A stretch of DNA of 64,000 nt. It comes from Enterobacteria phage vB_EcoM_IME540. Under the pieces are notes generated by a model. That model saw nothing but the letters and a program-made list of their open reading frames with translations. It did not search any database and had not been told where the DNA came from. The stretch is taken from sequence record MT150133.1, one strand, 5' to 3'. The translations under genes and the position numbers were made by a program. Position 1 is the first letter of the stretch, and every line of letters begins with the position of its first letter. Shown here piece by piece: positions 734 to 46,724 of the stretch.

Positions 734-962
734 CGTCTCGTTCCCATGATTGTTTAAAAATATCTTGCATAATAATTTGAAGTCTATTTTCTGTTGATGG
801 ACTTTCACTATCAGACACTTGAAGCATATAGTCACCAATAGGACAGAACATATCCAAGTCGCTTTCTAAATCTTCTTTGATTTTCTCTTCTGACGTTCCG
901 GTATCATAGGAATACAGATAAGAATCACATGACTCGGATTTAATATAAATCGCAATACTCAT
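726..962 (-). CDS. hypothetical protein, 78 aa, acidic
   Basis: ORF with ATGA start/stop overlap to the upstream gene and RBS GAGGAA inside the upstream coding sequence. Confidence 0.5.
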   Translation of the reverse strand: MSIAIYIKSESCDSYLYSYDTGTSEEKIKEDLESDLDMFCPIGDYMLQVSDSESPSTENRLQIIMQDIFKQSWERDDE

Positions 963-1552
963 TTACGGCATTCCTCAATAAACTCATTTAAATTCCGTTT
1001 GATTTTACCTTCGTCGTAAAGACGTTGTTGACGACGTAAACGCCATGGCATTTCAATAGCCAAGCACCAAATACTTAAAGCAGCGCCAGCTGTGAAAAGG
1101 TTCATTAATCCAGCACCAATAATAGTTCGTTCTAGCGCATCATTCCAGTTAGCATCGATTAAAAATGAACTCAACACTAACATTGGAAGTAAAGTAATAA
1201 AATATGCTACAACATATCGTCTGAACGTAAGCCATTCAGTATCGATGAGCTTAGCCTTTCCATCTTGGAGACAAATATACTTATCGTCAGTGCGGGTGAT
1301 TTTCTTTACTGGTTGCCAGCCGTTTACGATATAGCCCATTTTATATTCCTCAATTAAAAGCTGTTTCATTTCGGCAGTACAACCTGACCAATCTATTGTA
1401 CTGGCTGAAATTCCTTCATCACCGTCATCGATATTTCGCCAGGACTTTTTAATAATCATATGTTCACCACTTGGGATAATAATTCCAGCATTTTCCGACC
1501 GACGGATGAAGTTTGTATCAATACCCATACAACCGGGTTCATAAAGGGCCAT
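959..1552 (-). CDS. hypothetical membrane protein, 197 aa, with C-terminal RRQQR...NEFIEECRK tail
   Basis: TAATG overlap with upstream gene; hydrophobic segments YFITLLPMLVLSSFLI and IIGAGLMNLFTAGAALSIWCLAI. Confidence 0.6.
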   Translation of the reverse strand: MALYEPGCMGIDTNFIRRSENAGIIIPSGEHMIIKKSWRNIDDGDEGISASTIDWSGCTAEMKQLLIEEYKMGYIVNGWQPVKKITRTDDKYICLQDGKAKLIDTEWLTFRRYVVAYFITLLPMLVLSSFLIDANWNDALERTIIGAGLMNLFTAGAALSIWCLAIEMPWRLRRQQRLYDEGKIKRNLNEFIEECRK

Positions 1553-2241
1553 TACCAGCCCTCCATAGGGAATTCCAGATATACTTGAGCATTAACGCGG
1601 ATTTCATTAGTAATCTTTTTAACTCGGTCGGTATTACGAGACACACGACCAAACCAGCGCCAACCGTTACTTACTGCACGAGAACCTGTATGCCATGTCT
1701 GCCAATCAAACTGGAGCAACGTGCGGTCGGGGGCATCCCACTTGGTTAATTCATTAGACTCAATTTTTTCCAGAACTTCTTTATGCCACTGGCGATAGAT
1801 AAGTTCGCCTTCAGGAATCTGACTGAATTGTGCAGTTCCGGTTGCAAAATGAGTAGGACACACATCAGCGTTAACAAGACCAAGAATATGTTCAGAATGG
1901 TATCGAGGATTATCATAATCAGGTTGCCCTGCGGTAATAAAGTGTTGACCCACCGGAATATCCGGGCGTGGTACATCATCATGGTGGAAGCCTGGAATTG
2001 CAGGGTACCAGCCAGGCATTAACATGTGTACACGGGAATCAAATACAATATCAGGGCCACATTGCCAATCTTCAGGCAGGTTTTCAATAAAGCTACGAGT
2101 AATAGGACCGCCATGTTTATGAGCAAAATAAGCATCGCAATTAAAGAACATAGGCTCATTTTTAATCATATCATTACTGATATCTTGAGCAAAACCACCT
2201 ACTGCACGAGCTTTAGAATTAAAAATTTTTGGACCGTTCAT
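1552..2241 (-). CDS. hypothetical protein, 229 aa
   Basis: Long ORF in operon context; His/Asp-rich segment PGFHHDDVPRPD...HSEH could be a metal site; no family recognised. Confidence 0.6.
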   Translation of the reverse strand: MNGPKIFNSKARAVGGFAQDISNDMIKNEPMFFNCDAYFAHKHGGPITRSFIENLPEDWQCGPDIVFDSRVHMLMPGWYPAIPGFHHDDVPRPDIPVGQHFITAGQPDYDNPRYHSEHILGLVNADVCPTHFATGTAQFSQIPEGELIYRQWHKEVLEKIESNELTKWDAPDRTLLQFDWQTWHTGSRAVSNGWRWFGRVSRNTDRVKKITNEIRVNAQVYLEFPMEGW

Positions 2242-2255
2242 AATATTTTCCTCAC

Positions 2256-2468
2256 TTACTTTTTGTTGAAAAAGTACATTTTACCTTTAGGGGATAAGGA
2301 TACACGAAGTGCGTTACCAATACCAACTGAACATTTAACCAGGTCAGCAGATTTCAATTCACCAAATGCTTGACGAAGGTCACCGTCACGAGTGTTAACC
2401 ATCAGGCATTTAGCACCAGCTGCACGAACTTCGTTTAACATGTTGATTGCTTGGTTAGAAAGTTTCAT
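2256..2468 (-). CDS. hypothetical protein, 70 aa
   Basis: Start moved to internal ATG 2468-2466 with RBS GGAG (leader ...GGAGAATAAA-ATG) directly downstream of an early promoter cassette. Confidence 0.5.
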   Translation of the reverse strand: MKLSNQAINMLNEVRAAGAKCLMVNTRDGDLRQAFGELKSADLVKCSVGIGNALRVSLSPKGKMYFFNKK

Positions 2469-2505
2469 TTTATTCTCCATTTCACTCTGTTGTTTTGATA
2501 GGTCT

Positions 2506-2534
2506 ATAGTATCACACCTATAGACCTTGTACAC
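2506..2534 (-). promoter_or_regulatory. sigma70-type early promoter cassette (-35 GTGTAC, 17-bp spacer, -10 TACTAT) with 10-bp inverted repeat AGGTCTATAG/CTATAGACCT
   Basis: Minus strand ...GTGTACAAGGTCTATAGGTGTGATACTATAGACCTATCAAAACAACAGAGTGAAATGGAGAATAAA-ATG. Confidence 0.55.
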
Positions 2535-2546
2535 TGTTTTGTGCAA

Positions 2547-3506
2547 TTATTTTTCGAAAGGACGAATTAAATGTTGGTTACGCTTAAACCGTTCAATGTA
2601 GTCGTTTTCACCTAAAGTCTTGTACATATTAACCACAGCTTGGTAGTTTTCCCATGCATAAGTGCGGAACCAACCTGAAGTGATTGAGGTGCACACTTTC
2701 TCAAGGGCCATATAGAAACTTAATGATGGTGAAATATTGAAGTCATTAGGAACCTGTGAACGTTCTAGTGCCAGGACACAAGTTTCTTCATACACACCAG
2801 CCAGTTTAATAGCTTCAGGCAAAGCCTCGAACTTCTCACGAGAGGTCATGACTTCAGAACCTTCCTTCATATAAAAGGTATATGCAGGGCGCCCTGCCAA
2901 TGCCACTGCTTCATGGATAGAGTCGTGGTCCAGAGTATAAATGGGATCATTAAAGAACGATGATTTGTTTACATCCAATTTAGGGTGGGAATAGCTCAAC
3001 GTTTCTTTTTGACGTTGCAACATAATTTCCTGGAGTTCTTCGTTAAGGGTGATACCTTTATTACGAAGGTATTTGATGTGGGACATGGTTTTCAAGAAGA
3101 ACGGATTATTCTTCAAGAAACGATGGGAGGTTTTGATAGCCAGACAGATATCAGGGGTTGCCCAATAGAAACCTGTAAGACGGTCCTTTTTAATATGATT
3201 TTCGGCATATTTCAGGAGACGATAACTTGAGGTGAAATCTTCGTCTTGAAGCTCACCGGTAATTTCTCGTACGTTAGTCAGGGCACGAACGATATAAGCT
3301 TCAAAATAGGTTTCTTTACCATTGTACATGCATTTAAAAGCCTGGACATCAGGGTTATCCACAGGAACATGGGCACCAAACATCCGAGCTTTAAAGTGAT
3401 TCCATGAGCCTTGGTCGGCAATGAAATCCCAATCAGAATTTTCGATATGCTTACTTTCAATCAGACCAGCGTGGTGCAGTGCACGAGAACCAATAACTAA
3501 CATCAT
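2547..3506 (-). CDS. hypothetical protein, 319 aa; possible Pol-beta-type nucleotidyltransferase-like motif
   Basis: Start at ATG 3506-3504 with RBS GAGGAAA; N-terminal IGSRALHHAGLIESKHIENSDWDFIAD loosely resembles the hG[GS]...DxD signature. Confidence 0.6.
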   Translation of the reverse strand: MMLVIGSRALHHAGLIESKHIENSDWDFIADQGSWNHFKARMFGAHVPVDNPDVQAFKCMYNGKETYFEAYIVRALTNVREITGELQDEDFTSSYRLLKYAENHIKKDRLTGFYWATPDICLAIKTSHRFLKNNPFFLKTMSHIKYLRNKGITLNEELQEIMLQRQKETLSYSHPKLDVNKSSFFNDPIYTLDHDSIHEAVALAGRPAYTFYMKEGSEVMTSREKFEALPEAIKLAGVYEETCVLALERSQVPNDFNISPSLSFYMALEKVCTSITSGWFRTYAWENYQAVVNMYKTLGENDYIERFKRNQHLIRPFEK

Positions 3507-3525
3507 AATATTTTCCTCAGTAAAC

Positions 3526-3765
3526 TTAAATTTCAGCGACGTAATCGTTATGCAATTCCCACATATCATCAGAATTATTCTTAATGATAGGAATTATCTC
3601 ATTAGAGATTTCTTCAGCATAAGGGTCATTGATACAGTGGGCATCTTCAAAACGAACACCGTAATCAGACTTCTTATAAGAGAAGCCATAAATCTTTTTA
3701 AACTTGGCGCGAGTAATGCGTACCGGTTCATTAGACTTATCGGACATCGGAGCGTAATACCACAT
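3526..3765 (-). CDS. hypothetical protein, 79 aa
   Basis: ATG 3765 preceded by RBS GAGGAG in conserved leader ACACAAACATGAGGAGAACAT. Confidence 0.55.
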   Translation of the reverse strand: MWYYAPMSDKSNEPVRITRAKFKKIYGFSYKKSDYGVRFEDAHCINDPYAEEISNEIIPIIKNNSDDMWELHNDYVAEI

Positions 3766-3792
3766 ATGTTCTCCTCATGTTTGTGTAGGGTA

Positions 3793-3821
3793 ATAGTAAC
3801 ATGATTTTCTAGAGTTGTACA
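3793..3821 (-). promoter_or_regulatory. early promoter (-35 TGTACA, -10 TACTAT) with conserved leader
   Basis: Minus strand TGTACAACTCTAGAAAATCATGTTACTATTACCCTACACAAACATGAGGAGAACAT-ATG; leader near-identical to the one at 62501-62557. Confidence 0.45.
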
Positions 3822-4138
3822 TCACTTCTGCAATATTCTAAAAATAATTTATCATTGTCTACTGTATCCCAACGACGCCAAGACGGGTTCCAGACCAAAG
3901 CGTTGTCACCACAATCATTGAGCTTAAAATGGTCGTAGTACATAGCTATGTGTCTAGTCTCGTCACCAGAGAACCCCAGTATAGGCTCACCGTGGGTGTG
4001 ATACATATGATGGTGCATTGAGAGGTCGCATTTGTAAAACATCTCACGTTTACCACGAACGAACAAGAAGGCCTGTCCATTCATATAGAATTCTTTATTT
4101 GTTTTCAAAAGATATTTGAATACTGAATCTTTATGCAT
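3809..4138 (-). CDS. hypothetical protein, 109 aa, His-rich (MHHHMYHTHGE)
   Basis: Start at internal ATG 4138-4136 with strong RBS AGGAGGA. Confidence 0.5.
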   Translation of the reverse strand: MHKDSVFKYLLKTNKEFYMNGQAFLFVRGKREMFYKCDLSMHHHMYHTHGEPILGFSGDETRHIAMYYDHFKLNDCGDNALVWNPSWRRWDTVDNDKLFLEYCRSDVQL

Positions 4139-4168
4139 AAGTCCTCCTACCACATCCATGTGGTTAAA

Positions 4169-4396
4169 TTATTTTCCTAACGAAATACGAGTAGGTTTTT
4201 TACCGAAATAGTCTTCATAAGAACCATCTAAACGACCTGCTTTAGACCGACAATATGAATCGTACTTTTTGTAATAAGTCATCTCAGTATTATAACGCGG
4301 GTGTCTATCAGCCATAATAATACTTAACGGCCAACCTTTGGCATAATCGCGAAGACCATTTATTTTACGAATGTATCTTTTCTTTAATTTTAGCAT
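4169..4396 (-). CDS. possible small basic protein, 75 aa
   Basis: ORF only; no convincing RBS at either candidate ATG. Confidence 0.3.
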   Translation of the reverse strand: MLKLKKRYIRKINGLRDYAKGWPLSIIMADRHPRYNTEMTYYKKYDSYCRSKAGRLDGSYEDYFGKKPTRISLGK

Positions 4397-4614
4397 GAGC
4401 TCGGATACCAGATTTTACCATCGGCCTGAGCAACGAAGGTGCGTCCAGCTTCTTCACCATAACAAGAGCTATTCAGCCAATCTTCGAGACGAACTTCACC
4501 GTCATAATCGTCGAGCTCAACACCAAAACTTTGAGCAGAAGCCATATCTTTTACTTTCTTATACAGTGCAGCCAGTTCAAGTGCGGCTTTTTCTAATTCA
4601 TTAATATCAGTCAT
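4390..4614 (-). CDS. small acidic protein, 74 aa, member 1 of a four-gene paralog array (C-terminus WYPSSC)
   Basis: Start at internal ATG 4614-4612 with RBS AAGGTGA; shares N-terminal MTDINELEK and C-terminal W-x-SS-x-C pattern with neighbours. Confidence 0.55.
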   Translation of the reverse strand: MTDINELEKAALELAALYKKVKDMASAQSFGVELDDYDGEVRLEDWLNSSCYGEEAGRTFVAQADGKIWYPSSC

Positions 4615-4624
4615 TTTTATCACC

Positions 4625-4837
4625 TTAGCAAGACATAGAGGATGTAAACCAGAAACCTTCACCATCTGGGATACCGTAATCATCACGGGCCCATTCATAA
4701 TCATCATATTCCGGATTCTTTGGAGAAATGTATTGTCCACGACCAGAAACATGGAACTCTTCACCCGTTTCGTCAGCCACGGCCTGGCCTTTACGTACTA
4801 ATTCGCGGATTTGTTTTTCAATTTCATCAATAGTCAT
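4625..4837 (-). CDS. small acidic protein, 70 aa, paralog 2 (C-terminus WFTSSMSC)
   Basis: RBS AAGGAAA upstream of ATG 4837; N-terminal MTIDEIEK. Confidence 0.55.
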   Translation of the reverse strand: MTIDEIEKQIRELVRKGQAVADETGEEFHVSGRGQYISPKNPEYDDYEWARDDYGIPDGEGFWFTSSMSC

Positions 4838-4846
4838 TTTATTTCC

Positions 4847-5128
4847 TTAACATTCAGAAGAAGAGGACACCCAACCGCCATTTTCTAGGCTGGTGGTGTA
4901 ATCATGCTGGTTTACAATAGCATACTGGGCTTCACCGTATTCTTCCCAGTGGGCAAGGTCGGCTTTCAAGGCGCCAGGAGAATAATAGTCACCGCCCATA
5001 CCGCGAGCAGGGTATATATTAAAATGAGTCTCATATTTGTTAGCAATTTCCTCGGCACGACGAATAGCTTTATGGATATCATTTACTGCGTCAGCCAGCT
5101 CTTTATTTTTACGGTAATCATTCATCAT
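4847..5128 (-). CDS. small acidic protein, 93 aa, paralog 3 (C-terminus WVSSSSEC)
   Basis: RBS AAGGAAA upstream of ATG 5128. Confidence 0.55.
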   Translation of the reverse strand: MMNDYRKNKELADAVNDIHKAIRRAEEIANKYETHFNIYPARGMGGDYYSPGALKADLAHWEEYGEAQYAIVNQHDYTTSLENGGWVSSSSEC

Positions 5129-5137
5129 AGCGTTTCC

Positions 5138-5428
5138 TTAGCACATTGCCGAAGAGGAGACCCAAGCACCAACTGTAACGACACCGTTTTCAACTTCACC
5201 GCCATTGTTTTCAATTTCATCTTTAAACCATTGGGAGCATTCATAACCGACAGGATAATATGTACGGCCTGAACCATAACCACCGGTACTGAATTCAATA
5301 CCATATTCATCTGCGATTTCTTCACATTTGGATTCGATGGTGCCTACTTTACCCAGCAGGTCATAGATAGCCTTTTCTGCGGACAGCGCGCTGTTGTATT
5401 CAGGGATTTCAATTTCAATTTTATTCAT
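5138..5428 (-). CDS. small acidic protein, 96 aa, paralog 4 (C-terminus WVSSSAMC)
   Basis: RBS AAGGAA upstream; start overlaps stop of upstream gene. Confidence 0.55.
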   Translation of the reverse strand: MNKIEIEIPEYNSALSAEKAIYDLLGKVGTIESKCEEIADEYGIEFSTGGYGSGRTYYPVGYECSQWFKDEIENNGGEVENGVVTVGAWVSSSAMC

Positions 5429-5778
5429 GATTTACATTCCTTAATAAAGGTTTCAAGGTCATTACGTTTAGTTTGTTTTACATACTCATTATAATTAACC
5501 ATAGCTAAAGCATATCTCTTTTTACGCGGCTTGTTTATTTTATTAGTTTGGGCAATATCAAAGACCCATGGGATAAAAAATCCTATTAAAGCCGGAACCC
5601 AAATCCATGCAAGGCTCATATCTTCAAACGGATGGCGAGGCATACCATTAATAATCCCACCGACAAGAAATCCAATTATCCCTGCAGTCATACTAGTAGC
5701 AATGCCGAGGAATAAGGAAATAGCTATATCATAATCTGCTAATGCGTAACCAGGGTCGGTTTTACTAGGCTTATGCAT
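5425..5778 (-). CDS. hypothetical membrane protein, 117 aa, with C-terminal ...NDLETFIKECKS tail
   Basis: Start at internal ATG 5778-5776; two hydrophobic helices (IAISLFLGIATSMTAGIIGFLVGGII; AWIWVPALIGFFIPWVF). Confidence 0.55.
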   Translation of the reverse strand: MHKPSKTDPGYALADYDIAISLFLGIATSMTAGIIGFLVGGIINGMPRHPFEDMSLAWIWVPALIGFFIPWVFDIAQTNKINKPRKKRYALAMVNYNEYVKQTKRNDLETFIKECKS

Positions 5779-6307
5779 TTTGAACCTCTTTAGCGTATTC
5801 GCGACATTCAGTAATAAAACGATTAAGTTTACGTTGTTGTTTACGAATCTCTGATGTATACTCATTGGCTAAAATAATAAGCTCATCTTTATCGTAATTT
5901 TTAATATCCGAATAACTCGGGCGGCGGTCGACCATACCAAAGTGGTCACCATTTTCTAACATCAAATAGCATACTAAATGGTAATCATCGTCGGCATCAA
6001 CAAGCTGTTTATAATCGCTTGGTTCATTTAAAGAGTATACTGAATAGCGTAGCCCAGCGAATTCCACTCGTTGAATAGCCAGATTTACGTCAATAATTTC
6101 TAAAGCATCTGCAAAAGAAAGGTCCTCAGCTAAAGCAAAGATAAAGGGTAATTTGGTAGTATGCCCACGGCTAGATGTTCTGCTTAAGAAATCGTTTGAA
6201 TAACCTAGGTCTTGGCGAATTCTATAAAGAACTGCATTAGTTTCATGTGAAAGACCACTATGTTTAAACCAATCAATATTTGATATCAGGTCGTCGTATA
6301 AACTCAT
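5771..6307 (-). CDS. hypothetical protein, 178 aa, with C-terminal IRKQQRKLNRFITECREY module
   Basis: ORF with RBS GGAGGAGAGGAG upstream of ATG 6307. Confidence 0.6.
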   Translation of the reverse strand: MSLYDDLISNIDWFKHSGLSHETNAVLYRIRQDLGYSNDFLSRTSSRGHTTKLPFIFALAEDLSFADALEIIDVNLAIQRVEFAGLRYSVYSLNEPSDYKQLVDADDDYHLVCYLMLENGDHFGMVDRRPSYSDIKNYDKDELIILANEYTSEIRKQQRKLNRFITECREYAKEVQNA

Positions 6308-6330
6308 AATATTCTCCTCTCCTCCAAATA

Positions 6331-6348
6331 GGGAGACCGAAGTCTCCC
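6331..6348. terminator. stem-loop GGGAGAC-CGAA-GTCTCCC
   Basis: Perfect 7-bp stem with tetraloop between two minus-strand genes; same stem sequence recurs at 46366-46383. Confidence 0.45.
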
Positions 6349-6355
6349 GGTAACA

Positions 6356-6949
6356 TTACTTAAGTGAATTAATGTAGTCTTCGATATCAGCAGAAGTCGT
6401 ATCCATTCCAACTTGCGGGCCTTTAAACGTTTCTACGCGCATCAGGGTGTCTTCGATATCAATCTTGGTCAGTGCAGCAATTTCAACAACATCGTCGGCA
6501 GTAGCAATACCAAGGGCAGCCATATTACGAGTTTCACGGATGTACTCGAGCTTAACAGCCAGTTCCTGACGAGAGTCATCAAGTTCCTTAACCTTCAGTT
6601 TAATTTCATTACGCATTTCGATATAATCATCGGCTTTCTTACGAAGCTGAGTAGCTGTACGACGATAAAGGAGACCGAGTTTAGCATGTACCTGGACATC
6701 AGAGCCTTCGGCAATCAGTTTACGAATTTCACGTTCTTTAGAAGCAGCGAGCTGGTCTTTTTCATTAGCCAAAGCACGAATACGTTTTTCTTCATTCACA
6801 GACTTAACATGAGCAGTCTGGAGTTCAGTGATTTTATCAATCAGAGTAGAAGCAGCTTTGGTGTATTGGTCTTCGATTGACAGGTTCTGAGCCATTGCGG
6901 TGCCCAGTTTAGAACGAATGAATTCAACGATTTTCTTTAAAGTGTTCAT
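6356..6949 (-). CDS. PspA/IM30 (phage-shock protein A / Vipp1)-like coiled-coil protein, 197 aa
   Basis: Start at ATG 6949-6947 with RBS GAAGGAAA; heptad-rich sequence with segments resembling PspA ([13 protein letters not shown] vs RALAEKKQL; [18 protein letters not shown] vs ELENKLSETRARQQAL), from memory. Confidence 0.5.
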
Positions 6950-7025
6950 AGTATTTCCTTCAGTTGGTTGATATTTTGTAATCCATGAGGACATTATACC
7001 CTGTCCTCTGAGGTTTGTAAACATT

Positions 7026-7424
7026 TTATTTCATTTTTGCGAGGCAGATTTCATTGGCTTCCCATTGAGCTTGCTTAATAATAGCTTTGGATACAGGAGC
7101 CCTTTGCCCATAAGTTTTTGACGTTGAGAGAACAATACATTTGTTTGCTTCATTATGCCAGCCCCATGATTTTTCGCCATGAGTACCTTTAACTACAGCT
7201 GACACCTCAACAGAGCAACCGCCATCAGAAATCTTGGTTTCGACAACCCATTCATTTCTCTCAGCAGCTTCAATTTCTAATCTAGTTTTTTCTTCATACA
7301 TCGCGGCCCAATCAGTTTTTGCCAAGTTGAAAGTAAGAGCTTTCTCTAATTCTTTGGCATATTTTTGTTGTTCAGGTGTTAATGAATTATACAACTCTTG
7401 CATTTCTTTATCTTCGATATTCAT
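7026..7424 (-). CDS. hypothetical protein, 132 aa
   Basis: ATG 7424 with RBS GAGGAG in leader TTTGAGGAGAACATA; early promoter upstream. Confidence 0.55.
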
Positions 7425-7449
7425 TATGTTCTCCTCAAATTATGGGCTC

Positions 7450-7479
7450 ATAATATCTTAATCATGAGCCCATGTAAAC
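7450..7479 (-). promoter_or_regulatory. early promoter (-35 GTTTAC, 18-bp spacer, -10 TATTAT) inside inverted repeat TGGGCTCA/TGAGCCCA
   Basis: Minus strand GTTTACATGGGCTCATGATTAAGATATTATGAGCCCATAATTTGAGGAGAACATA-ATG. Confidence 0.5.
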
Positions 7480-7482
7480 GTT

Positions 7483-7746
7483 TTATTTCATATTATTGAA
7501 ATAATTTTCTGCATCAAAATCATTACCATGGTAAACTTTGGTAGACGATTTGGCGTAACCTTCAGCTGAGAACATATTAATCACAACTTTAATTGTATAC
7601 CACTGTCCATCTTCATTACCCATTACTGCATAGGTTTCATACACCGGGTGTTCAGGACCGATAACCTTAATATCGTTAACTGTGGCACCAAATTCTTCCG
7701 GAACGCATTTCATAAAGAAATTAAACACTTCACCATAATTATCCAT
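7483..7746 (-). CDS. hypothetical protein, 87 aa
   Basis: Track ORF begins at a GTG; real start taken as ATG 7746-7744 with RBS AAGGAG. Confidence 0.5.
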   Translation of the reverse strand: MDNYGEVFNFFMKCVPEEFGATVNDIKVIGPEHPVYETYAVMGNEDGQWYTIKVVINMFSAEGYAKSSTKVYHGNDFDAENYFNNMK

Positions 7747-7781
7747 TTTACTCTCCTTCACTCTGTTGTTTTGATAGGTCT

Positions 7782-7810
7782 ATAGTATCATGTTTAAAGG
7801 AGGTGTAAAC
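7782..7810 (-). promoter_or_regulatory. early promoter cassette (-35 GTTTAC, 17 bp, -10 TACTAT)
   Basis: Minus strand GTTTACACCTCCTTTAAACATGATACTATAGACCTATCAAAACAACAGAGTGAAGGAGAGTAAA-ATG. Confidence 0.55.
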
Positions 7811-7833
7811 ATCTTTTTTAAACTTTTAGAAAC

Positions 7834-7861
7834 AAAAAAGGCCCAACCTTTCGGAAGGGCC
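7834..7861 (-). terminator. rho-independent terminator, copy 1 of identical 30-bp element ACAAAAAAGGCCCAACCTTTCGGAAGGGCC
   Basis: Minus strand reads GGCCCTTCCGAAAGGTTGGGCC + TTTTTT directly after the stop of gene 7867-8421. Confidence 0.65.
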
Positions 7862-7866
7862 GTGAA

Positions 7867-8421
7867 TCAGTTCTTGTAGAACCGGAACGGGTTTATGTGG
7901 AAGGCTAACATAGCCTTAGGGATTTTACGAGACAAAAGACTCTTAAGTTTCCAACCACAGTACACGCGAAGGTAAAAGGTAATTCCACCTACTTTAAGAT
8001 ACGGAACCGAAGCAAAGACTCCCCATGCTTCATCATTCCACATCCATAACCAACCATGGTGAGCTTTATCAGGAGAACCAGATTCTACATCAGGATTACC
8101 GCGATAATGGAATTCTGAACTACAATCACGTCCTAGTTTATGATAAGCAAAGTTATAAGCTTTATTTCGCCATAGCCAAGCTACTCTCTGGAGGTAAACA
8201 CCACCAGGCATTTTCCTGATTTTAGCCCAACGTTTAATATGACCTTTGTCGCCATCAATTGGATTATCGTATGTCATCATCCAATCAAAGCCATAAGGCA
8301 ATTTACCGGTCTTTTTATTGTAGAAAGGAACTACAAAAGGCGCAAGGATAACGGCTAGAACCATAGAGATAAAATCCAGCGGGACCAACAGAATCCAACT
8401 CAAATATTTTAAAAGTTTCAT
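7867..8421 (-). CDS. hypothetical membrane-anchored protein, 184 aa, Trp/His-rich C-terminal domain
   Basis: N-terminal hydrophobic segment LSWILLVPLDFISMVLAVILAPFVVPF; RBS AGGAAATAAT; late-type TATAAATA box 27 nt upstream. Confidence 0.6.
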   Translation of the reverse strand: MKLLKYLSWILLVPLDFISMVLAVILAPFVVPFYNKKTGKLPYGFDWMMTYDNPIDGDKGHIKRWAKIRKMPGGVYLQRVAWLWRNKAYNFAYHKLGRDCSSEFHYRGNPDVESGSPDKAHHGWLWMWNDEAWGVFASVPYLKVGGITFYLRVYCGWKLKSLLSRKIPKAMLAFHINPFRFYKN

Positions 8422-8447
8422 ATTATTTCCTAAGTTAGTTTACTACA

Positions 8448-8455
8448 TATTTATA
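8448..8455 (-). promoter_or_regulatory. late promoter TATAAATA for gene 7867-8421
   Basis: Minus strand TTTTTTGTATAAATATGTAGTAAACTAACTTAGGAAATAAT-ATG. Confidence 0.5.
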
Positions 8456-8456
8456 C

Positions 8457-8484
8457 AAAAAAGGCCCAACCTTTCGGAAGGGCC
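8457..8484 (-). terminator. rho-independent terminator, copy 2 of the identical 30-bp element
   Basis: Same hairpin + T-run downstream of the tRNA/ncRNA region. Confidence 0.65.
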
Positions 8485-8490
8485 TTTAAC

Positions 8491-8715
8491 CTAGGGTAAC
8501 CTTGTCGGGGTTCCACCTGCTAGGCAAGTGTTCGGTGCGCCGTTTCAGCTGTGATAGTAAAGAGCCAGAACACAGTAAAACTGTGGGAGGAACTATACTC
8601 CAGGGAACATCAGTCCGACGACTTACCGGTAGCGACCCGGTTTCTTGTTTGGTGCGCCGGTGAATGCTGGTAATCAGTCTTCATACGACGGCTTGACTAT
8701 ATAATAGTCTTCATT
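8491..8715 (-). ncRNA. candidate small stable RNA(s) downstream of tRNA-Arg, analogous in position to T4 RNA species C/D
   Basis: 225 nt with no credible ORF, between tRNA-Arg and a terminator; internal repeats GGTGCGCCG and AGTCTTCAT; not folded. Confidence 0.3.
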
Positions 8716-8790
8716 TGGTATCCCGCCCTGGGATCGAACCAGGACCGCAAACTTAGAAGGATCGTATGCTATCCATTACACCAGCGGGAC
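8716..8790 (-). tRNA. tRNA-Arg (anticodon UCU), CCA encoded
   Basis: Minus strand GTCCCGC...TTCTAAG...CCTGGTTCGATCCCAGGGCGGGATACCA; 7-bp acceptor stem, T-arm CCTGG-TTCGATC-CCAGG, anticodon loop CTTCTAA. Confidence 0.85.
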
Positions 8791-8795
8791 GTAAT

Positions 8796-9461
8796 TCAAA
8801 ATTTTATTTTACGGCCTTTATTCCAACCTTCAGGAATAATATCCGTTTTGTTAATACGTTTAGAAACTTTTTCTTCTAAAGAATGAATCCACATTTTTCC
8901 ATATCCGGAATTATTTTCACCTTGTTGGTGTTTATTTCTGGCGTGAGATTCTTTCATTTTATTTTTGGTTTCATCTGAATGGGTCTTACCCAAGAAAGAT
9001 TTAGTATTTGAAAATTTCTCTCTATACTTAGGATTATCCCAAAGTTGTTTAAACCTTTCCGAACCCATTTTACGATATTTTTCTTTAAGGTCTGGGTCGT
9101 TCTCAAATCTGGTTTTAAAAGCGGCAACTCCTTTTAAGGAAGCTTCTTTCTTTTTATCTAAATATTCTTCAGTGTTTAAATGGTCCCAACCACCTTCACC
9201 ACCTAATTTCAAATTATAAACATCAGGGCGCTTTAAAAACTCTTCAGTCACAATATTCTTTTCTGACTCAAACATAGAGGTTTTATCGTCAAAGAACTCT
9301 AATATTTCTTTAGAGAAATTTTCTATACCGTATTTGACCTGGGCCCTTTTTAAGAGTTTACCAGAACCAAAATATGCATCATTCAAATTTTCGGTTGAAT
9401 GGGCGCCTATATAGATTTTATTATTAATTTTGTTTGTTATTTTATAAGTGTAATGGAACAT
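8796..9461 (-). CDS. segB: GIY-YIG homing endonuclease, segB-like, inside the tRNA cluster
   Basis: 221 aa; N-terminal YKITNKINNKIYIGAHST...GSGK motif; basic NUMOD-like C-terminus; RBS AGGAGA; same position as T4 segB. Confidence 0.8.
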   Translation of the reverse strand: MFHYTYKITNKINNKIYIGAHSTENLNDAYFGSGKLLKRAQVKYGIENFSKEILEFFDDKTSMFESEKNIVTEEFLKRPDVYNLKLGGEGGWDHLNTEEYLDKKKEASLKGVAAFKTRFENDPDLKEKYRKMGSERFKQLWDNPKYREKFSNTKSFLGKTHSDETKNKMKESHARNKHQQGENNSGYGKMWIHSLEEKVSKRINKTDIIPEGWNKGRKIKF

Positions 9462-9502
9462 AAATATCTCCTATTTCTAAGAGTATTTATGTTCTCAAAA
9501 TA

Positions 9503-9573
9503 TGGCCCTGGGTGGAATCGAACCACCATCCAGCGATTATGAGTCGCTCGCTTGACCGTCCAGCTACAGGGCC
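9503..9573 (-). tRNA. tRNA with CAU anticodon (Met, or Ile if lysidine-modified), CCA not encoded
   Basis: Minus strand GGCCCTG...AGCGA-CTCATAA-TCGCT...GGTGG-TTCGATT-CCACC-CAGGGCC-A. Confidence 0.8.
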
Positions 9574-9578
9574 TTAAA

Positions 9579-9851
9579 TCAAACTACAAATCCAGCAGGA
9601 GCATTATCATCTTTAGCCATGTGCTGAATTGTATGATAAGTCATTTCTTCAGGAGCAACCAGATAAGCCGCAGCGTTAACTAGTGGAATTATTTTTGGTT
9701 TAGCGAATGTGCTATCGGCAATTGCCATAAAGGGCTCGCCATCAGTCTCAACTTCGCCAAATTGACATTCATATGAAATAGAACAACGTTTGGTAGTTGT
9801 TGTCTTGGTTTCTGGGTCGTAAAAAGCTAATTTTAATACTAACATAAACAC
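9579..9851 (-). CDS. hypothetical protein, 90 aa
   Basis: ORF only, immediately upstream of the tRNA. Confidence 0.4.
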   Translation of the reverse strand: MFMLVLKLAFYDPETKTTTTKRCSISYECQFGEVETDGEPFMAIADSTFAKPKIIPLVNAAAYLVAPEEMTYHTIQHMAKDDNAPAGFVV

Positions 9852-9903
9852 CTCAAATAAAATTAAGTAAAGTAAGTTTGATTAATAGACCTTGTCTATT
9901 ATG

Positions 9904-9929
9904 AAAGGTTCTTTGAGGGAAGAACCTTT
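9904..9929. other. 10-bp-stem hairpin AAAGGTTCTT-TGAGGG-AAGAACCTTT in an intergenic region
   Basis: Perfect inverted repeat in 170-nt noncoding stretch 9852-10019. Confidence 0.4.
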
Positions 9930-10019
9930 GGTAATAGAGGGTATTAATGATAGAGTAATAATAACACATTACTCTTAAAGCATATTACTATTTTTAGGAA
10001 TAGTCTGGTCAAATTTGAT

Positions 10020-10310
10020 TCATTGTGGCCACATATTAATGTAATCAAGTTTAATAGAAGCAATCTTCAAAGGATTTTTAAAGATGTCGTATTCGATCAA
10101 TCCGTTTTCAGTTGCGGTGTAGAAAGTAAAGTTAACAGAATTATAACGGCGACCATTAACTTTTAGTTTAACGTCGCTTGAACTACGACCAATATTAACC
10201 TGTTGGACATCAAGCACAGCACCTTTGCCAAAGTTGCGAATCAGTAGCTCTGCTGCAACCTGGTCTGAATTATAGCCATTCTCTGGATTAGTAACCTTAA
10301 CGTATAGCAT
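10020..10310 (-). CDS. hypothetical protein, 96 aa
   Basis: ORF with RBS GAGGG; stop/start juxtaposed to the upstream gene. Confidence 0.5.
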   Translation of the reverse strand: MLYVKVTNPENGYNSDQVAAELLIRNFGKGAVLDVQQVNIGRSSSDVKLKVNGRRYNSVNFTFYTATENGLIEYDIFKNPLKIASIKLDYINMWPQ

Positions 10311-10718
10311 TTAACCCTCGTCTACAATAGTATGGGTATTAGCATTAACAATCTGCCACCAGTCACAGTCAAAACGATTAGAACCGTAACGAGGCTTTTT
10401 CTCATTTTCGTTAATAATATCACGTAGTTCGTCTTCAGAAAATGCTTTAGCGATTAAATCGGTATAGCCGCCACGTGGATAATAGTTATCACCTGCGAAC
10501 AGAAGGAAATTTACTTTACCAGAAGGAACATATGCTTCCTTAGGATACTTGTTTCCTGCTTGGTCTACCACTTCAATATAACGGTAAGGAATATCGGTAC
10601 TTTCAACCCATTGCCAAGCTGCAGCAGGGGATTCAAAAGCATCTACACCTAAACGGTTATCTTCATCTTTAGACGGATTATTTTCATAATCCGCATATAC
10701 ATAATATTCAATGTTCAT
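10311..10718 (-). CDS. hypothetical protein, 135 aa
   Basis: ORF with TAATG overlap to the upstream gene. Confidence 0.55.
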   Translation of the reverse strand: MNIEYYVYADYENNPSKDEDNRLGVDAFESPAAAWQWVESTDIPYRYIEVVDQAGNKYPKEAYVPSGKVNFLLFAGDNYYPRGGYTDLIAKAFSEDELRDIINENEKKPRYGSNRFDCDWWQIVNANTHTIVDEG

Positions 10719-10903
10719 TATTCACCTTTAGAGATTTTATCCATAACGAAAGAAATTGAACCAATTAAGAATGCCACTACTAAAGAGATTATATTCTCGG
10801 AAGTTGAAAGCATATCGAGCATGAATCCTGCAAACATACTAAAGCCAAAAGCAGTAACAGCGGCCAGTGCAGTAACATTTCTAATTAATTCACAAGGTTT
10901 CAT
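10718..10903 (-). CDS. small hydrophobic membrane protein, 61 aa
   Basis: Track ORF begins at TTG; real start ATG 10903-10901 with RBS GGAG in leader GGAGAATAAA-ATG; two hydrophobic stretches. Confidence 0.5.
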   Translation of the reverse strand: MKPCELIRNVTALAAVTAFGFSMFAGFMLDMLSTSENIISLVVAFLIGSISFVMDKISKGE

Positions 10904-10939
10904 TTTATTCTCCAATCACTCATTTGTTTTGATAGGGCT

Positions 10940-10969
10940 ATAGTACCATCACTAAAGCCCGTTGTAAAC
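10940..10969 (-). promoter_or_regulatory. early promoter cassette (-35 GTTTAC, -10 TACTAT) with inverted repeat GGGCTATAG/CTAAAGCCC
   Basis: Minus strand GTTTACAACGGGCTTTAGTGATGGTACTATAGCCCTATCAAAACAAATGAGTGATTGGAGAATAAA-ATG. Confidence 0.55.
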
Positions 10970-10971
10970 AA

Positions 10972-11244
10972 TTATTTTAAATAAATTGCATATTTTTTAT
11001 AACCAGCCGTCTCGTGGCGCAGCCCTTTTTCATTAGCAAAACGTTCAATATTGTTAATTTGATTCTGGTCGAGTTCTGAAGTATCAAATACAAAAAAGTT
11101 TCGCTTATTGCCTAAAGTTACGTGATTAGTCAAATCGATGTTATAGAGATGATTTATATTATCAATCATGGTCTTAACAGATTTGTTAATTTTTACTTCT
11201 TCATTAAGAATAGATTCAGCGATAAATTCTTGGTATGATTTCAT
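10972..11244 (-). CDS. internal-protein-like, 90 aa, with N-terminal capsid-targeting sequence MKSYQEFIAES
   Basis: N-terminus matches the T4 internal protein (IPI/IPII/IPIII) capsid-targeting sequence MKTYQEFIAEA; body differs from the neighbour. Confidence 0.65.
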   Translation of the reverse strand: MKSYQEFIAESILNEEVKINKSVKTMIDNINHLYNIDLTNHVTLGNKRNFFVFDTSELDQNQINNIERFANEKGLRHETAGYKKYAIYLK

Positions 11245-11245
11245 T

Positions 11246-11470
11246 TTATTCAGCGCCAGCAGCTTTCAAAAGTTTTTTAAGATTGGCTATGCCGCCAGCA
11301 GAAAACGTGACCTTGCCACCTTTTTCATTGATAGAGCCAGTCAATTTAGCAAGCTTATCACTAGGGACTTTTTTAAAATCAGCCAGTGTGCCATCAAAGG
11401 TTTTTGTAACAATTGGCAGTTCATCTTCATGTCTTTTAGCTTCGGTGATAAATTCTTGATAAGTTTTCAT
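11246..11470 (-). CDS. internal-protein-like, 74 aa, with N-terminal capsid-targeting sequence MKTYQEFITEA
   Basis: Capsid-targeting-type N-terminus; early promoter cassette upstream. Confidence 0.65.
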   Translation of the reverse strand: MKTYQEFITEAKRHEDELPIVTKTFDGTLADFKKVPSDKLAKLTGSINEKGGKVTFSAGGIANLKKLLKAAGAE

Positions 11471-11507
11471 TTTGATTTCCGTTTGGTTAGTTTGTTTTGA
11501 TAGGTCT

Positions 11508-11536
11508 ATAGTATCATGCCTATAGACCTTGTAAAC
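11508..11536 (-). promoter_or_regulatory. early promoter cassette (-35 GTTTAC, 17 bp, -10 TACTAT) with 10-bp inverted repeat AGGTCTATAG/CTATAGACCT
   Basis: Minus strand GTTTACAAGGTCTATAGGCATGATACTATAGACCTATCAAAACAAACTAACCAAACGGAAATCAAA-ATG. Confidence 0.55.
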
Positions 11537-11547
11537 AACTTTTTAAA

Positions 11548-12240
<693 letters not shown>

Positions 12241-14993: not shown

Positions 14994-15596
14994 ATGCTCT
15001 TCTCATTTTTCGATCCCATCGATTACGAATCAAAAACAGTCAAGCCAGATTCCGGCTCATTAACTGATGCCGATGTACTGAGCGTACCGATGACTGATAT
15101 ATTTAGAAACTATAAAGAATATTTTGATAAAGTGGCTAAAAATTATACACTTAAAACATATTATATCAGTGGGGCCCCTCGTCCAGAAGAATTAGCCCAT
15201 CAACTTTATGGTAACGTGCAATTATATTGGGTCCTTTTAATGTGTAACAATATCTATGACCCTTATTACGGCTGGATTACAGGCCAAGAATCTGCGTATC
15301 AAGCAGCTATTCAACGTTATGCTACTGCAGGCGGAAACCAAGTCCTTTATCATGTCAATGAAAAGGGTGAGAAATTCTGGAATCTAGTAAATACTCCGGA
15401 AAATCCTTATACTTGGTACGATAAAGGTGATACAGAAAAACGTTATCCTCAATATGAAGGTCCTTTGGCTGCAGTAGATATTTACGAGGACGCCATTCGT
15501 AAAAATGAATATAAGCGCGAAATAAAGATTATAGACCCTAATGACATCGAGTCCTTTGTTTCCGCTTTAATTAGAGAAATGGAGAAGTCACTCTAA
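14994..15596 (+). CDS. 53: baseplate wedge protein gp53
   Basis: 200 aa MLFSFFDPIDYESKTV...PMTDIFRNYKEYF...YWVLLMCNNIYDPYYGWIT, matches T4 gp53. Confidence 0.85.
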   Translation: MLFSFFDPIDYESKTVKPDSGSLTDADVLSVPMTDIFRNYKEYFDKVAKNYTLKTYYISGAPRPEELAHQLYGNVQLYWVLLMCNNIYDPYYGWITGQESAYQAAIQRYATAGGNQVLYHVNEKGEKFWNLVNTPENPYTWYDKGDTEKRYPQYEGPLAAVDIYEDAIRKNEYKREIKIIDPNDIESFVSALIREMEKSL

Positions 15597-16231
15597 TGTT
15601 TTATTACGTCTATAAAATAACCAATATAATTAATGGTAAATTTTATATCGGTGCTCATAGTACATCAAATATGGATGACGGTTATATGGGCTCAGGTAAA
15701 TTAATTAAACGCGCTATACTAAAATATGGCATTGAAAATTTCAAAAAAGAAATATTAAAATTTGTTGATTCTAAAAAAGAAATGTATGAACTCGAAAAAG
15801 AACTTGTTGTCCTTACTGAAAATTCATACAATTTAAAACCGGGCGGTTCCGGTGGGTTTTTAAAACATGATAACTTTAAAGGCAGGTCCCATAGTCAGAA
15901 AACCAAAGATATTATGAGCGCTAATAACTCAGGCAAAAACAATCCTATGTATGGTAGAAAACGAGACCAACACGGAGAAAAAGCACCTAATTATGGTAAA
16001 AAGTGCTCTGAGGCTAAAAGAAAATTACTTTCTGAAAAATCTAAATCCTATTTTGAAAACCTTCAAACCATAACTAAAAATCTCGGCTTTGGTCCTACAT
16101 CGGTTGAAACTAGATATGTATCAAGACATATTAAAAAGCTAGGATTAGATTTTTATAAATTTAATCGTGATATAACAGAAACTAATGTTTCCATAGTTAG
16201 AAATATTTTAGAACAAAGGAAAGCGCTATGA
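15596..16231 (+). CDS. GIY-YIG homing endonuclease (seg-like) inserted between genes 53 and 5
   Basis: 211 aa; N-terminus MFYYVYKITNIINGKFYIGAHST...GSGK is a close paralog of the segB-like protein; ATGA overlap with gene 5. Confidence 0.8.
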   Translation: MFYYVYKITNIINGKFYIGAHSTSNMDDGYMGSGKLIKRAILKYGIENFKKEILKFVDSKKEMYELEKELVVLTENSYNLKPGGSGGFLKHDNFKGRSHSQKTKDIMSANNSGKNNPMYGRKRDQHGEKAPNYGKKCSEAKRKLLSEKSKSYFENLQTITKNLGFGPTSVETRYVSRHIKKLGLDFYKFNRDITETNVSIVRNILEQRKAL

Positions 16232-46694: not shown

Positions 46695-46724
46695 ATAGTA
46701 ACATGTGAGAATCTTGCTGTAAAC
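46695..46724 (-). promoter_or_regulatory. early promoter cassette (-35 GTTTAC, 18 bp, -10 TACTAT)
   Basis: Minus strand GTTTACAGCAAGATTCTCACATGTTACTATAGACCTATCAAAACATGAGGAGATTAAAA-ATG. Confidence 0.5.

Follow-up and report, generated by a model that had tools for sequence, protein, structure and literature searches.

The nudE–57B accessory segment of a Dhakavirus phage compared with the hyperplastic region of T4, early-promoter stem-loop elements and SegB homing

The closest described systems are the 'e – tRNA – ipI' hyperplastic (accessory) region of phage T4, the early promoter plus stem-loop elements (PeSLs) of T4-type phages and the homing endonuclease SegB. PeSLs are concentrated in T4-type hyperplastic regions and mediate modular shuffling (PMC2839356; PMC4122927). 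SegB cuts preferentially inside tRNA-Asn, and on homing the recipient's own Asn and Arg genes are replaced (PMC2330249). Described here is the segment at positions 959-11500 of a 64,000-nucleotide stretch (the window) of Enterobacteria phage vB_EcoM_IME540 (record MT150133.1), lying between nudE and the Acb1 gene (57B). All genes, RNAs and promoters of the segment, and the adjoining Acb1 gene, are on the minus strand. The segment is very probably the Dhakavirus version of the T4 region. An initial annotation, made from the sequence without database searches, had described it as an early accessory region of the counter-defence kind. The general idea is retained, with three known counter-defence classes in or beside the segment; nothing found supports it specifically for the uncharacterised open reading frames (ORFs).

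Identity, gene content and synteny with T4

Compared by megablast with 50,697 phage records, the segment gives 765 matching records, the top ones being Dhakavirus and near relatives at 94-98% identity. The best matches are Escherichia phages LQ5 (100% coverage, 95.1% identity) and LHE83 (96% coverage, 97.7% identity), followed by JS10, IME281, WG01, QL01 and MX01, all of the genus Dhakavirus, Tevenvirinae. Judged by these matches, the window is a JS10/JS98-like T-even phage (Dhakavirus). The annotated records of JS10, IME281 and T4 have the same map: denV, ipIII, e, nudE, small leftward genes with the tRNA block, trna.2/.3/.4, ip genes, 57B, 57A, 1, 3, 2. Since this map is shared, 959-11500 is taken as the Dhakavirus counterpart of the T4 e.2–e.8 / tRNA / trna.2–4 / ipI segment.

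Gene content and synteny are observed directly. Minus-strand protein genes inside 959-11500 number 24, or 25 with a 78-amino-acid (aa) gene at 726-962; products are 61-319 aa long (ORF listing and translation, start codons trimmed to match those of relatives). Together with two tRNAs the protein genes give a coding or RNA share of 89%. The dense array of about 25 ORFs between nudE and Acb1 reported initially is thus confirmed. Every ORF has a PHROG family match (E 1.7e-9 to 1e-148). The ORFs are intact, with identities of 80-100% to JS10 or IME281 for all but the e.2-like and e.3-like membrane proteins. Given the PHROG matches and the conservation in relatives, the ORFs are real genes and not chance frames. 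Membrane proteins, likewise mentioned in the initial annotation, are present; four are predicted (e.2-like, e.3-like, DUF7338, trna.4).

All 26 proteins were compared with the whole T4 genome by tblastn, with E<0.01 as the limit below which a match was counted. T4 counterparts at the same map position and in the same order are eight: e.2 (42% identity), e.3 (23%, E 2.8e-7), e.6 (74%), e.8 (80%), segB (76%), trna.2 (49%), trna.3 (63%) and trna.4 (66%). No T4 match within this limit was found for 15 of the 25 protein genes, including a 2-oxoglutarate (2OG)-Fe(II) oxygenase, a nucleotidyltransferase (NTase) and a small-protein family ending in W-x-x-S-S-x-x-C. The absence of T4 counterparts claimed at first therefore holds for 15 genes and fails for the eight syntenic homologs. 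By this comparison the scaffold is T4-like and most of the cargo is different, and the T4 counterparts are themselves uncharacterised except segB. The ORFs are not all accounted for by characterised T4 homologs of housekeeping function.

The flanking genes nudE and 57B and the orientation are the same as in T4. Also as in T4, tRNA-Arg lies directly downstream of segB, and rnaC/rnaD-like sequence follows tRNA-Arg. The segment differs from the T4 region in having two tRNAs instead of eight, in having the place of ipI held by two ip genes of other sequence, and in having no detectable homolog of e.4 and e.7; the protein in the e.5 position shares only a C-terminal tail with its T4 counterpart.

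Early promoters, mosaic junctions and the segB–tRNA block

Promoters are observed directly. A repeat of 45-91 nucleotides (nt) is present in four copies at about 2534, 7810, 10968 and 11536 (repeat search). The T4-early-type pattern GTTTAC-N14-20-TAYWRT occurs seven times in 64 kb, against 0.81 expected; none of 100 shuffles reached seven, and five of the seven lie inside this 11-kb segment. A sixth promoter of the segment, recognised by alignment at 2506-2534, has GTGTAC. Inverted repeats of 8-13 bp, running from just past the -35 box to just past the -10 box, are present in five of the six promoters: 2506-2534 (10-bp repeat, hairpin -15.4 kcal/mol), 6993-7022 (GTTTAC-N17-TATAAT, 11/12 consensus positions, -12.6 kcal/mol), 7450-7479 (pattern match, 13-bp repeat, -20.0 kcal/mol), 10940-10969 (-13.3 kcal/mol) and 11508-11536 (-15.4 kcal/mol). 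The copies at 2506-2534, 10940-10969 and 11508-11536 belong to the repeated cassette. The stem sequences of the five are of four different kinds, with hairpin energies from -12.6 to -20.0 kcal/mol. Pairing is kept among the five while the stem sequence changes. The related promoters 7782-7810 and 46695-46724 retain the right arm alone.

The element at 7782-7866 is composite and of PeSL type (repeat and promoter pattern): a G+C-rich terminator hairpin (7832-7866) stands directly upstream of the early promoter (7782-7810). Like the PeSLs of RB49/phi1, PST and nt-1 (Arbiol 2010; Comeau 2014), the promoters here have an A/T-rich upstream tract, a TTTAC-type -35 box, a TAYWAT-type -10 box and a stable stem-loop; they are repeated within a hyperplastic region, and two of the indels that separate close relatives (e.8, the ip pair) fall between copies. 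They differ in that five of the six have an inverted repeat bracketing the -10 box and not an upstream terminator, the published terminator-then-promoter layout being present in 7782-7866 only.

The segment would be read leftward early in infection from at least six sigma-70 early promoters, with one gene late; the early timing is suggested by promoter type. The MotA-type middle promoter pattern is not enriched (20 found, 14.4 expected). The late candidate is the DUF7338 gene (7867-8421; 184 aa, N-terminal transmembrane helix, Pfam DUF7338 2.1e-63). It is preceded at 8448-8455 by the late-type box TATAAATA (T4 late-promoter consensus), the only one on the minus strand of the segment, and is flanked by terminator repeats at 7832-7866 and 8455-8489 that are 94% identical. 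This gene looks like a self-contained late-expressed cassette inside the early region. The initial annotation had all genes driven by repeated early promoter cassettes. Four repeat copies and six promoters agree with it in part; the DUF7338 gene has its own late box, and 13 genes (7424 to 2547) lie downstream of one promoter pair.

Mosaic junctions are directly visible in nucleotide comparisons with relatives. JS10 is without the e.8 cassette (7436-7739), which sits between two promoters here and is present in IME281. JS10 is also without the ip pair (10979-11445), which sits between two cassette copies here. Junctions at e.8 and the ip pair fit cassette boundaries; those at segB, at a phrog_899 copy, at a 159-aa gene of JS10 and in the middle of e.2 (compared with JS10) do not. 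The 159-aa gene, which is acidic, lies between the trna.2 homolog and a 90-aa gene in JS10/IME281 (relative's locus 11055-11531) and is absent from the window at 9985-9993. Recombination between repeated PeSL-type cassettes would insert, delete and swap gene cassettes, and such shuffling is the presumed cause of the indels.

Many of the small ORFs might on this account be selfish, largely or wholly functionless passengers of mobile promoter cassettes. Phages more than 90% identical do differ in whether they have e.8, the ip pair, one of the phrog_899 copies and the 159-aa gene of JS10, and PeSL elements are reported to mobilise ORFans (PMC2839356). The passenger explanation is nevertheless very unlikely in view of the strong PHROG E-values of every ORF, the intact frames conserved at 80-100% in relatives apart from the two diverged membrane proteins, and the invariant C-terminal motif of phrog_899, which over about 100 clusters at 50% identity indicates purifying selection.

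A second route of exchange is marked by the segB–tRNA block. SegB (8796-9461; 221 aa) is a GIY-YIG homing endonuclease by Pfam (GIY-YIG 24.3 bits, cut-off 22.6; NUMOD3 just under its cut-off), by PHROG (phrog_314 'homing endonuclease', 1.8e-47) and by 75.6% identity to T4 SegB over the full 221 aa. It is preceded in map order by tRNA-Arg (TCT) at 8716-8790 (ARAGORN; Rfam 48.8 bits), which is 100% identical to T4 tRNA-Arg and unrelated to JS10 tRNA-Arg. On the other side, at 9503-9573, is a tRNA with anticodon CAT (Met, or Ile2 if lysidine-modified; ARAGORN, Rfam), identical to JS10 tRNA-Met over 71 nt and thus of the Dhakavirus allele. JS10 and IME281 are without segB; JS10 has tRNA-Arg, tRNA-Asn and tRNA-Met side by side, and tRNA-Asn is gone from the window. 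The interval 8654-9502 is unmatched in JS10/IME281, yet has 81% nucleotide identity to T4. From the T4-like interval, the T4 allele of tRNA-Arg, the loss of tRNA-Asn and the target preference of SegB, 8654-9502 is read as a homing footprint, in which a tRNA-Arg–segB block of Tequatrovirus type has entered a Dhakavirus backbone and tRNA-Asn has been lost. SegB homing would overwrite the tRNA block of segB-less relatives. The gene resembles T4 segB in its length of 221 aa, its GIY-YIG domain and its place between two tRNA genes, where segB-less relatives have tRNA-Asn; it differs in that the allele is in a Dhakavirus backbone, its activity and any part in segmental amplification being putative.

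Next to tRNA-Arg, a non-coding stretch of about 200 nt (8500-8715) is 78-83% identical by blastn to T4 6826-6906 and 7051-7177, which are rnaC/rnaD (species 1 and 2) by the T4 annotation. It carries tRNA-like ...GGCGCACCA ends, two of them of type ...GGCGCACC(A). An Rfam search of the segment gave the two tRNAs only and no family over this stretch. The two tRNAs, SegB with its footprint, the rnaC/rnaD-like sequence and the late-promoter gene had been missed in the initial annotation. Outside the segment, the 92 aa encoded at 15596-15859 show 61% identity to the window SegB in its N-terminal GIY-YIG part, which makes a further seg-type (segC-like) endonuclease gene, whole or fragmentary, probable there.

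The e.2-like gene (959-1552; phrog_2203 2.6e-69; 42% to T4 e.2) and the e.3-like gene (5425-5778; phrog_2330 2.7e-43; weak T4 e.3 match, 2.8e-7) each encode two predicted transmembrane helices. They are the most diverged genes, 54% and 53% identical, respectively, to JS10/IME281, compared with about 95% for their neighbours. The C-terminal 36 aa of the e.2-like protein are 67-72% identical to Tequatrovirus e.2 and 47% to other Dhakavirus e.2, and the middle of the gene (992-1308) has no nucleotide match in JS10/IME281. The gene looks like a chimeric allele, which suggests a second recombination with a T4-type phage.

A main role in competition between phages, with marker exclusion by SegB and superinfection exclusion by the small membrane proteins, would agree with several of these features. 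SegB excludes the tRNA region of a co-infecting relative (PMC2330249) and its footprint is visible here; divergence is greatest in the e.2-like and e.3-like proteins, the former being apparently chimeric. Such a role is rather unlikely as the principal one. No similarity to T4 Imm or Sp was found in the whole-genome T4 comparison, SegB has a demonstrated anti-defence role too (PMC13096335), and the soluble enzymes and small acidic proteins would be left without explanation.

Two widespread enzymes and the small-protein families

The largest protein (2547-3506; 319 aa) matches Pfam DUF7277 and, in a C-terminal helical part fused to it, DUF7275. It has 1,920 homolog clusters at 41-89% identity. 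Invariant in an alignment of 37 sequences are G6, S7, D25, D27 and E69, together with a second cluster of H128, H174, D193, H194, D195 and H198; 56 columns of this alignment are invariant, at identities down to 44%. The AlphaFold2 model (pLDDT 91.7, pTM 0.84) has a pol-beta NTase fold carrying G-S…D-x-D and a third carboxylate; the fold is seen directly in the model. The nucleotidyltransferase-like protein of the initial annotation is well founded on these grounds. No match was found to DUF1814/AbiEii or NTP_transf Pfam profiles at E<=0.1, to PADLOC AbiE or, by sequence, to the PDB. Lacking membership of any such profile, the protein is described as working like an NTase of that fold and is not filed as a member of MenT/AbiEii. 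It is, by the model, a MenT/ANT-like nucleotidyltransferase, apparently intact. With MenT/AbiEii (DUF1814) and ANT-type NTases it shares G-S…D-x-D and the third carboxylate E69. It differs from them in sequence (8-14% identity to these chains), in being virus-encoded with no toxin-antitoxin locus and no obvious antitoxin partner gene seen, and in the extra helical DUF7275 domain of about 190 aa with its own invariant His/Asp cluster. The family ranges over T4-likes, Vequintavirinae, Pseudomonas, Acinetobacter and Vibrio phages and actinophages (Gordonia, Mycobacterium); DUF7275 is also found in giant viruses, e.g. Sylvanvirus and Satyrvirus. A link to T4 NrdC.11, annotated 'nucleotidyltransferase', was rejected (hhalign probability 0.05).

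The second enzyme (1552-2241; 229 aa) has 1,469 homolog clusters, the best 120 at 68-92% identity, with 74% of alignment columns identical on average. Invariant residues are H86, H87, D88, D89, H184, R199 and S201. The model (pLDDT 86.9) has a double-stranded beta-helix fold, directly seen, with an H-x-D/E…H triad and a basic 2OG-binding residue. This model places the protein among the PhyH-like 2OG-Fe(II) oxygenases. It resembles the PhyH-like oxygenases (EasH, EctD, proline hydroxylases) in the invariant H-x-D…H metal triad and an R-x-S candidate 2OG-binding site, but is 9-14% identical to them, has no Pfam profile match and has a 45-residue loop (75-116) with no predicted secondary structure and many invariant residues. 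The family is present in T4-likes, Vequintavirinae and Pseudomonas, Acinetobacter, Gordonia and Mycobacterium phages. In Gordonia phage Toniann (locus 2327-4666) the homolog stands two genes downstream of an RtcB-like RNA ligase. The idea that oxygenase and NTase form a two-gene module is unsupported: they are adjacent in T4-likes, and the NTase is not within 4 kb in Gordonia, Bacillus and Acinetobacter phages.

Both enzymes bear on the explanation that most of the uncharacterised genes serve phage physiology or host takeover (nucleic-acid/tRNA metabolism, protein modification, envelope remodelling), the oxygenase and the NTase being auxiliary metabolic enzymes. This has somewhat less than an even chance of being right. 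It would account for the high identity among the best 120 oxygenase clusters (68-92%, 74% of columns on average), for the 56 invariant columns of the NTase in 37 sequences down to 44% identity, for the spread of both families across T4-likes, Vequintavirinae and Pseudomonas/Acinetobacter/Gordonia/Mycobacterium phages and of DUF7275 into giant viruses, and for the oxygenase two genes after RtcB RNA ligase in Toniann. T4, however, lacks both enzymes and completes its life cycle without them, and counter-defence enzymes such as Acb1 are likewise well conserved.

Four tandem paralogs (4390-5428; 74, 70, 93 and 96 aa) are acidic and all of phrog_899. They have an AYGMGG-like motif and an invariant C-terminal W-x-x-S-S-x-x-C (alignments). 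Compared with 1.84 billion representatives, the phrog_899 profile gives about 100 clusters (50% identity) of stand-alone proteins of 65-145 aa keeping this C-terminus; large matches (BACON, Ig and ankyrin repeat proteins) are spurious. JS10/IME281 have five copies, the extra one ending WVSSSYEC (relative's locus 6531-6728). At the junction of the array here is a 43-nt overlap of the kind that unequal recombination would leave. The several paralog families of the initial annotation hold for this one tandem family of four.

The e.2-like protein (...FIEECRK), the e.3-like protein (...FIKECKS) and the protein in the e.5 position share the C-terminus F[IV]x[ED]C[RK], with a basic stretch before it, and are otherwise unrelated, two being membrane proteins and one soluble. 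The last (5771-6307; 178 aa, phrog_8788 5.6e-117) is a positional analogue of T4 e.5, with the tail F[IV]xECREY as in e.5. The same tail, as F[IV]x[ED][CS][RK], is present in T4 e.3, e.4 (Ser for Cys) and e.5 (T4 locus 3482-5271); the annotated e.2 of T4 stops early, and the tail is encoded in frame downstream of the stop. The tail is nowhere else among the 26 proteins, the chance being about 1e-4 per tail for a motif defined after seeing the data. It suggests a common partner of the e.2, e.3, e.4 and e.5 proteins.

The e.6 homolog (6356-6949; 197 aa, 74% to T4 e.6) is the likeliest bearer of the label 'PspA-like' in the initial annotation. The label was rejected as unsupported by Pfam or PDB profiles: no PspA_IM30 Pfam match was found, and PDB searches with the single sequence and with a 28-homolog profile gave no PspA, Vipp1 or ESCRT-III at E<=10.

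The remaining genes are small. Beyond the left border are nudE (284-733; Pfam NUDIX 7e-15) and the acidic 78-aa protein (726-962; isoelectric point (pI) 4.1, phrog_2900 1.6e-37), 88-97% identical in JS10/IME281 and with no T4 counterpart. A basic 71-aa protein (2256-2471; pI 9.9, phrog_6001 3.3e-42) lies between the two enzymes. Upstream of the NTase are three small genes with no T4 counterpart, encoding 79 aa (3526-3765), a His-rich protein of 109 aa (3809-4138) and a basic protein of 75 aa (4169-4396), of phrog_3723, phrog_9796 and phrog_7065, respectively (E 2e-35 to 3e-77). A 132-aa protein is encoded at 7026-7424 (phrog_8232 5.4e-75), the e.8 homolog at 7483-7746 (87 aa, 80% to T4 e.8, its cassette missing from JS10) and a 90-aa protein at 9579-9851 (phrog_14864 5.1e-63). 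Homologs of trna.2 (96 aa, 10020-10310), trna.3 (135 aa) and trna.4 (61 aa, two transmembrane helices) occupy 10020-10903 and are 49%, 63% and 66% identical to the T4 proteins. PDB sequence searches with the trna.3, DUF7338, e.5-like and 132-aa proteins gave no meaningful match, and for the genes outside the counter-defence classes the PDB searches gave no solved relative. In the literature and in the HIDEN-SEQ preprint nothing was found on DUF7275, DUF7277, DUF7338 or the T4 e.x genes.

Bearing on counter-defence

By analogy with published systems, the segment holds or touches three counter-defence classes: SegB with tRNAs, injected internal proteins, and Acb1. Acb1 (57B; 11548-12003) adjoins the segment from outside; it matches Pfam Acb1 over its full length (8.9e-59), is 85% identical to T4 57B and has two H-x-T motifs in translation (FHSTICY, PHITLSY). 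Acb1 is an anti-CBASS 2H phosphodiesterase that degrades CBASS signals. Two internal-protein genes (10972-11470; 90 and 74 aa; phrog_7673 and phrog_8765, 'internal head/virion protein') have N-termini MKSYQEFIAE and MKTYQEFITE. These fit the capsid-targeting MKTYQEFIAE type and match T4 ipII at the N-terminus only; the products are predicted to be capsid-injected internal proteins. The initial annotation had the region adjoin both Acb1 and the internal-protein genes; Acb1 is indeed adjacent, and the two ip genes are inside 959-11500. T4 Ip1, Ip2 and Ip3 are inhibitors of one GmrSD type IV restriction enzyme each, and for ten other ip genes no target was found (PMC12373910). Amplification driven by SegB acts on tRNA-Tyr against Septu and, at other places of the genome, on anti-OLD and anti-ToxIN genes (PMC13096335). 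When DRT1, a defence reverse transcriptase, was used in a pulldown, the only T4 proteins enriched were Trna.2 and one other, and Trna.2 was not followed up there (PMC13275509); the homolog in the window is 49% identical to it.

The cargo would be a mixed toolbox: counter-defence classes, two widespread enzymes, four membrane proteins, the W-x-x-S-S-x-x-C family and other small ORFs. A counter-defence role for the uncharacterised genes themselves may be supposed as a reasonable starting assumption. The DUF7277–DUF7275 protein may be a viral relative of the MenT tRNA nucleotidyltransferases and may itself act on tRNA 3' ends. Damage done to tRNAs by tRNA-targeting immunity could then be repaired or the tRNAs remodelled by it, with the His/Asp-rich C-terminal domain perhaps serving as an end-healing phosphohydrolase. 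Independently of this, the W-x-x-S-S-x-x-C proteins may be a new family of small immune antagonists. Both proposals are quite unlikely.

Several points weigh against an early, cassette-shuffled region with counter-defence cargo. A 4.9-kb run of 13 genes (7424 to 2547) is without a recognisable internal promoter. Only two of about six JS10 junctions sit cleanly between cassette copies. The stem-loop of RB49/phi1 stands beside the promoter as a terminator, whereas here it lies mostly over the -10 box, and the equation with PeSLs is one of resemblance. The high conservation and wide spread of the oxygenase and the NTase are not what arms-race genes would show; the two look more like conserved auxiliary enzymes. 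Among the uncharacterised ORFs, none had a match to any known anti-defence or defence family (Pfam; PADLOC and NCBIfam for ten proteins each).

The segment, read as the Dhakavirus version of the T4 hyperplastic region, can reasonably be searched for new anti-defence genes, though it does not stand out as a site for them; about 15 of its genes are real and of unknown function. Near-identical copies of it are already in GenBank as hypothetical proteins, and the region itself is ordinary. Its value is a short ranked list for experiments, in which the 2OG oxygenase figures with its very strong conservation. Most promising are the MenT-like NTase–DUF7275, the W-x-x-S-S-x-x-C tandem family, the shared e.2–e.5 tail and the Trna.2 homolog. 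The SegB footprint, as read here, would be a clean natural example of homing moving a tRNA allele from Tequatrovirus into Dhakavirus. If the proposed role at tRNA ends were true, the NTase would be a counter-defence enzyme common to tRNA-carrying large phages and giant viruses.

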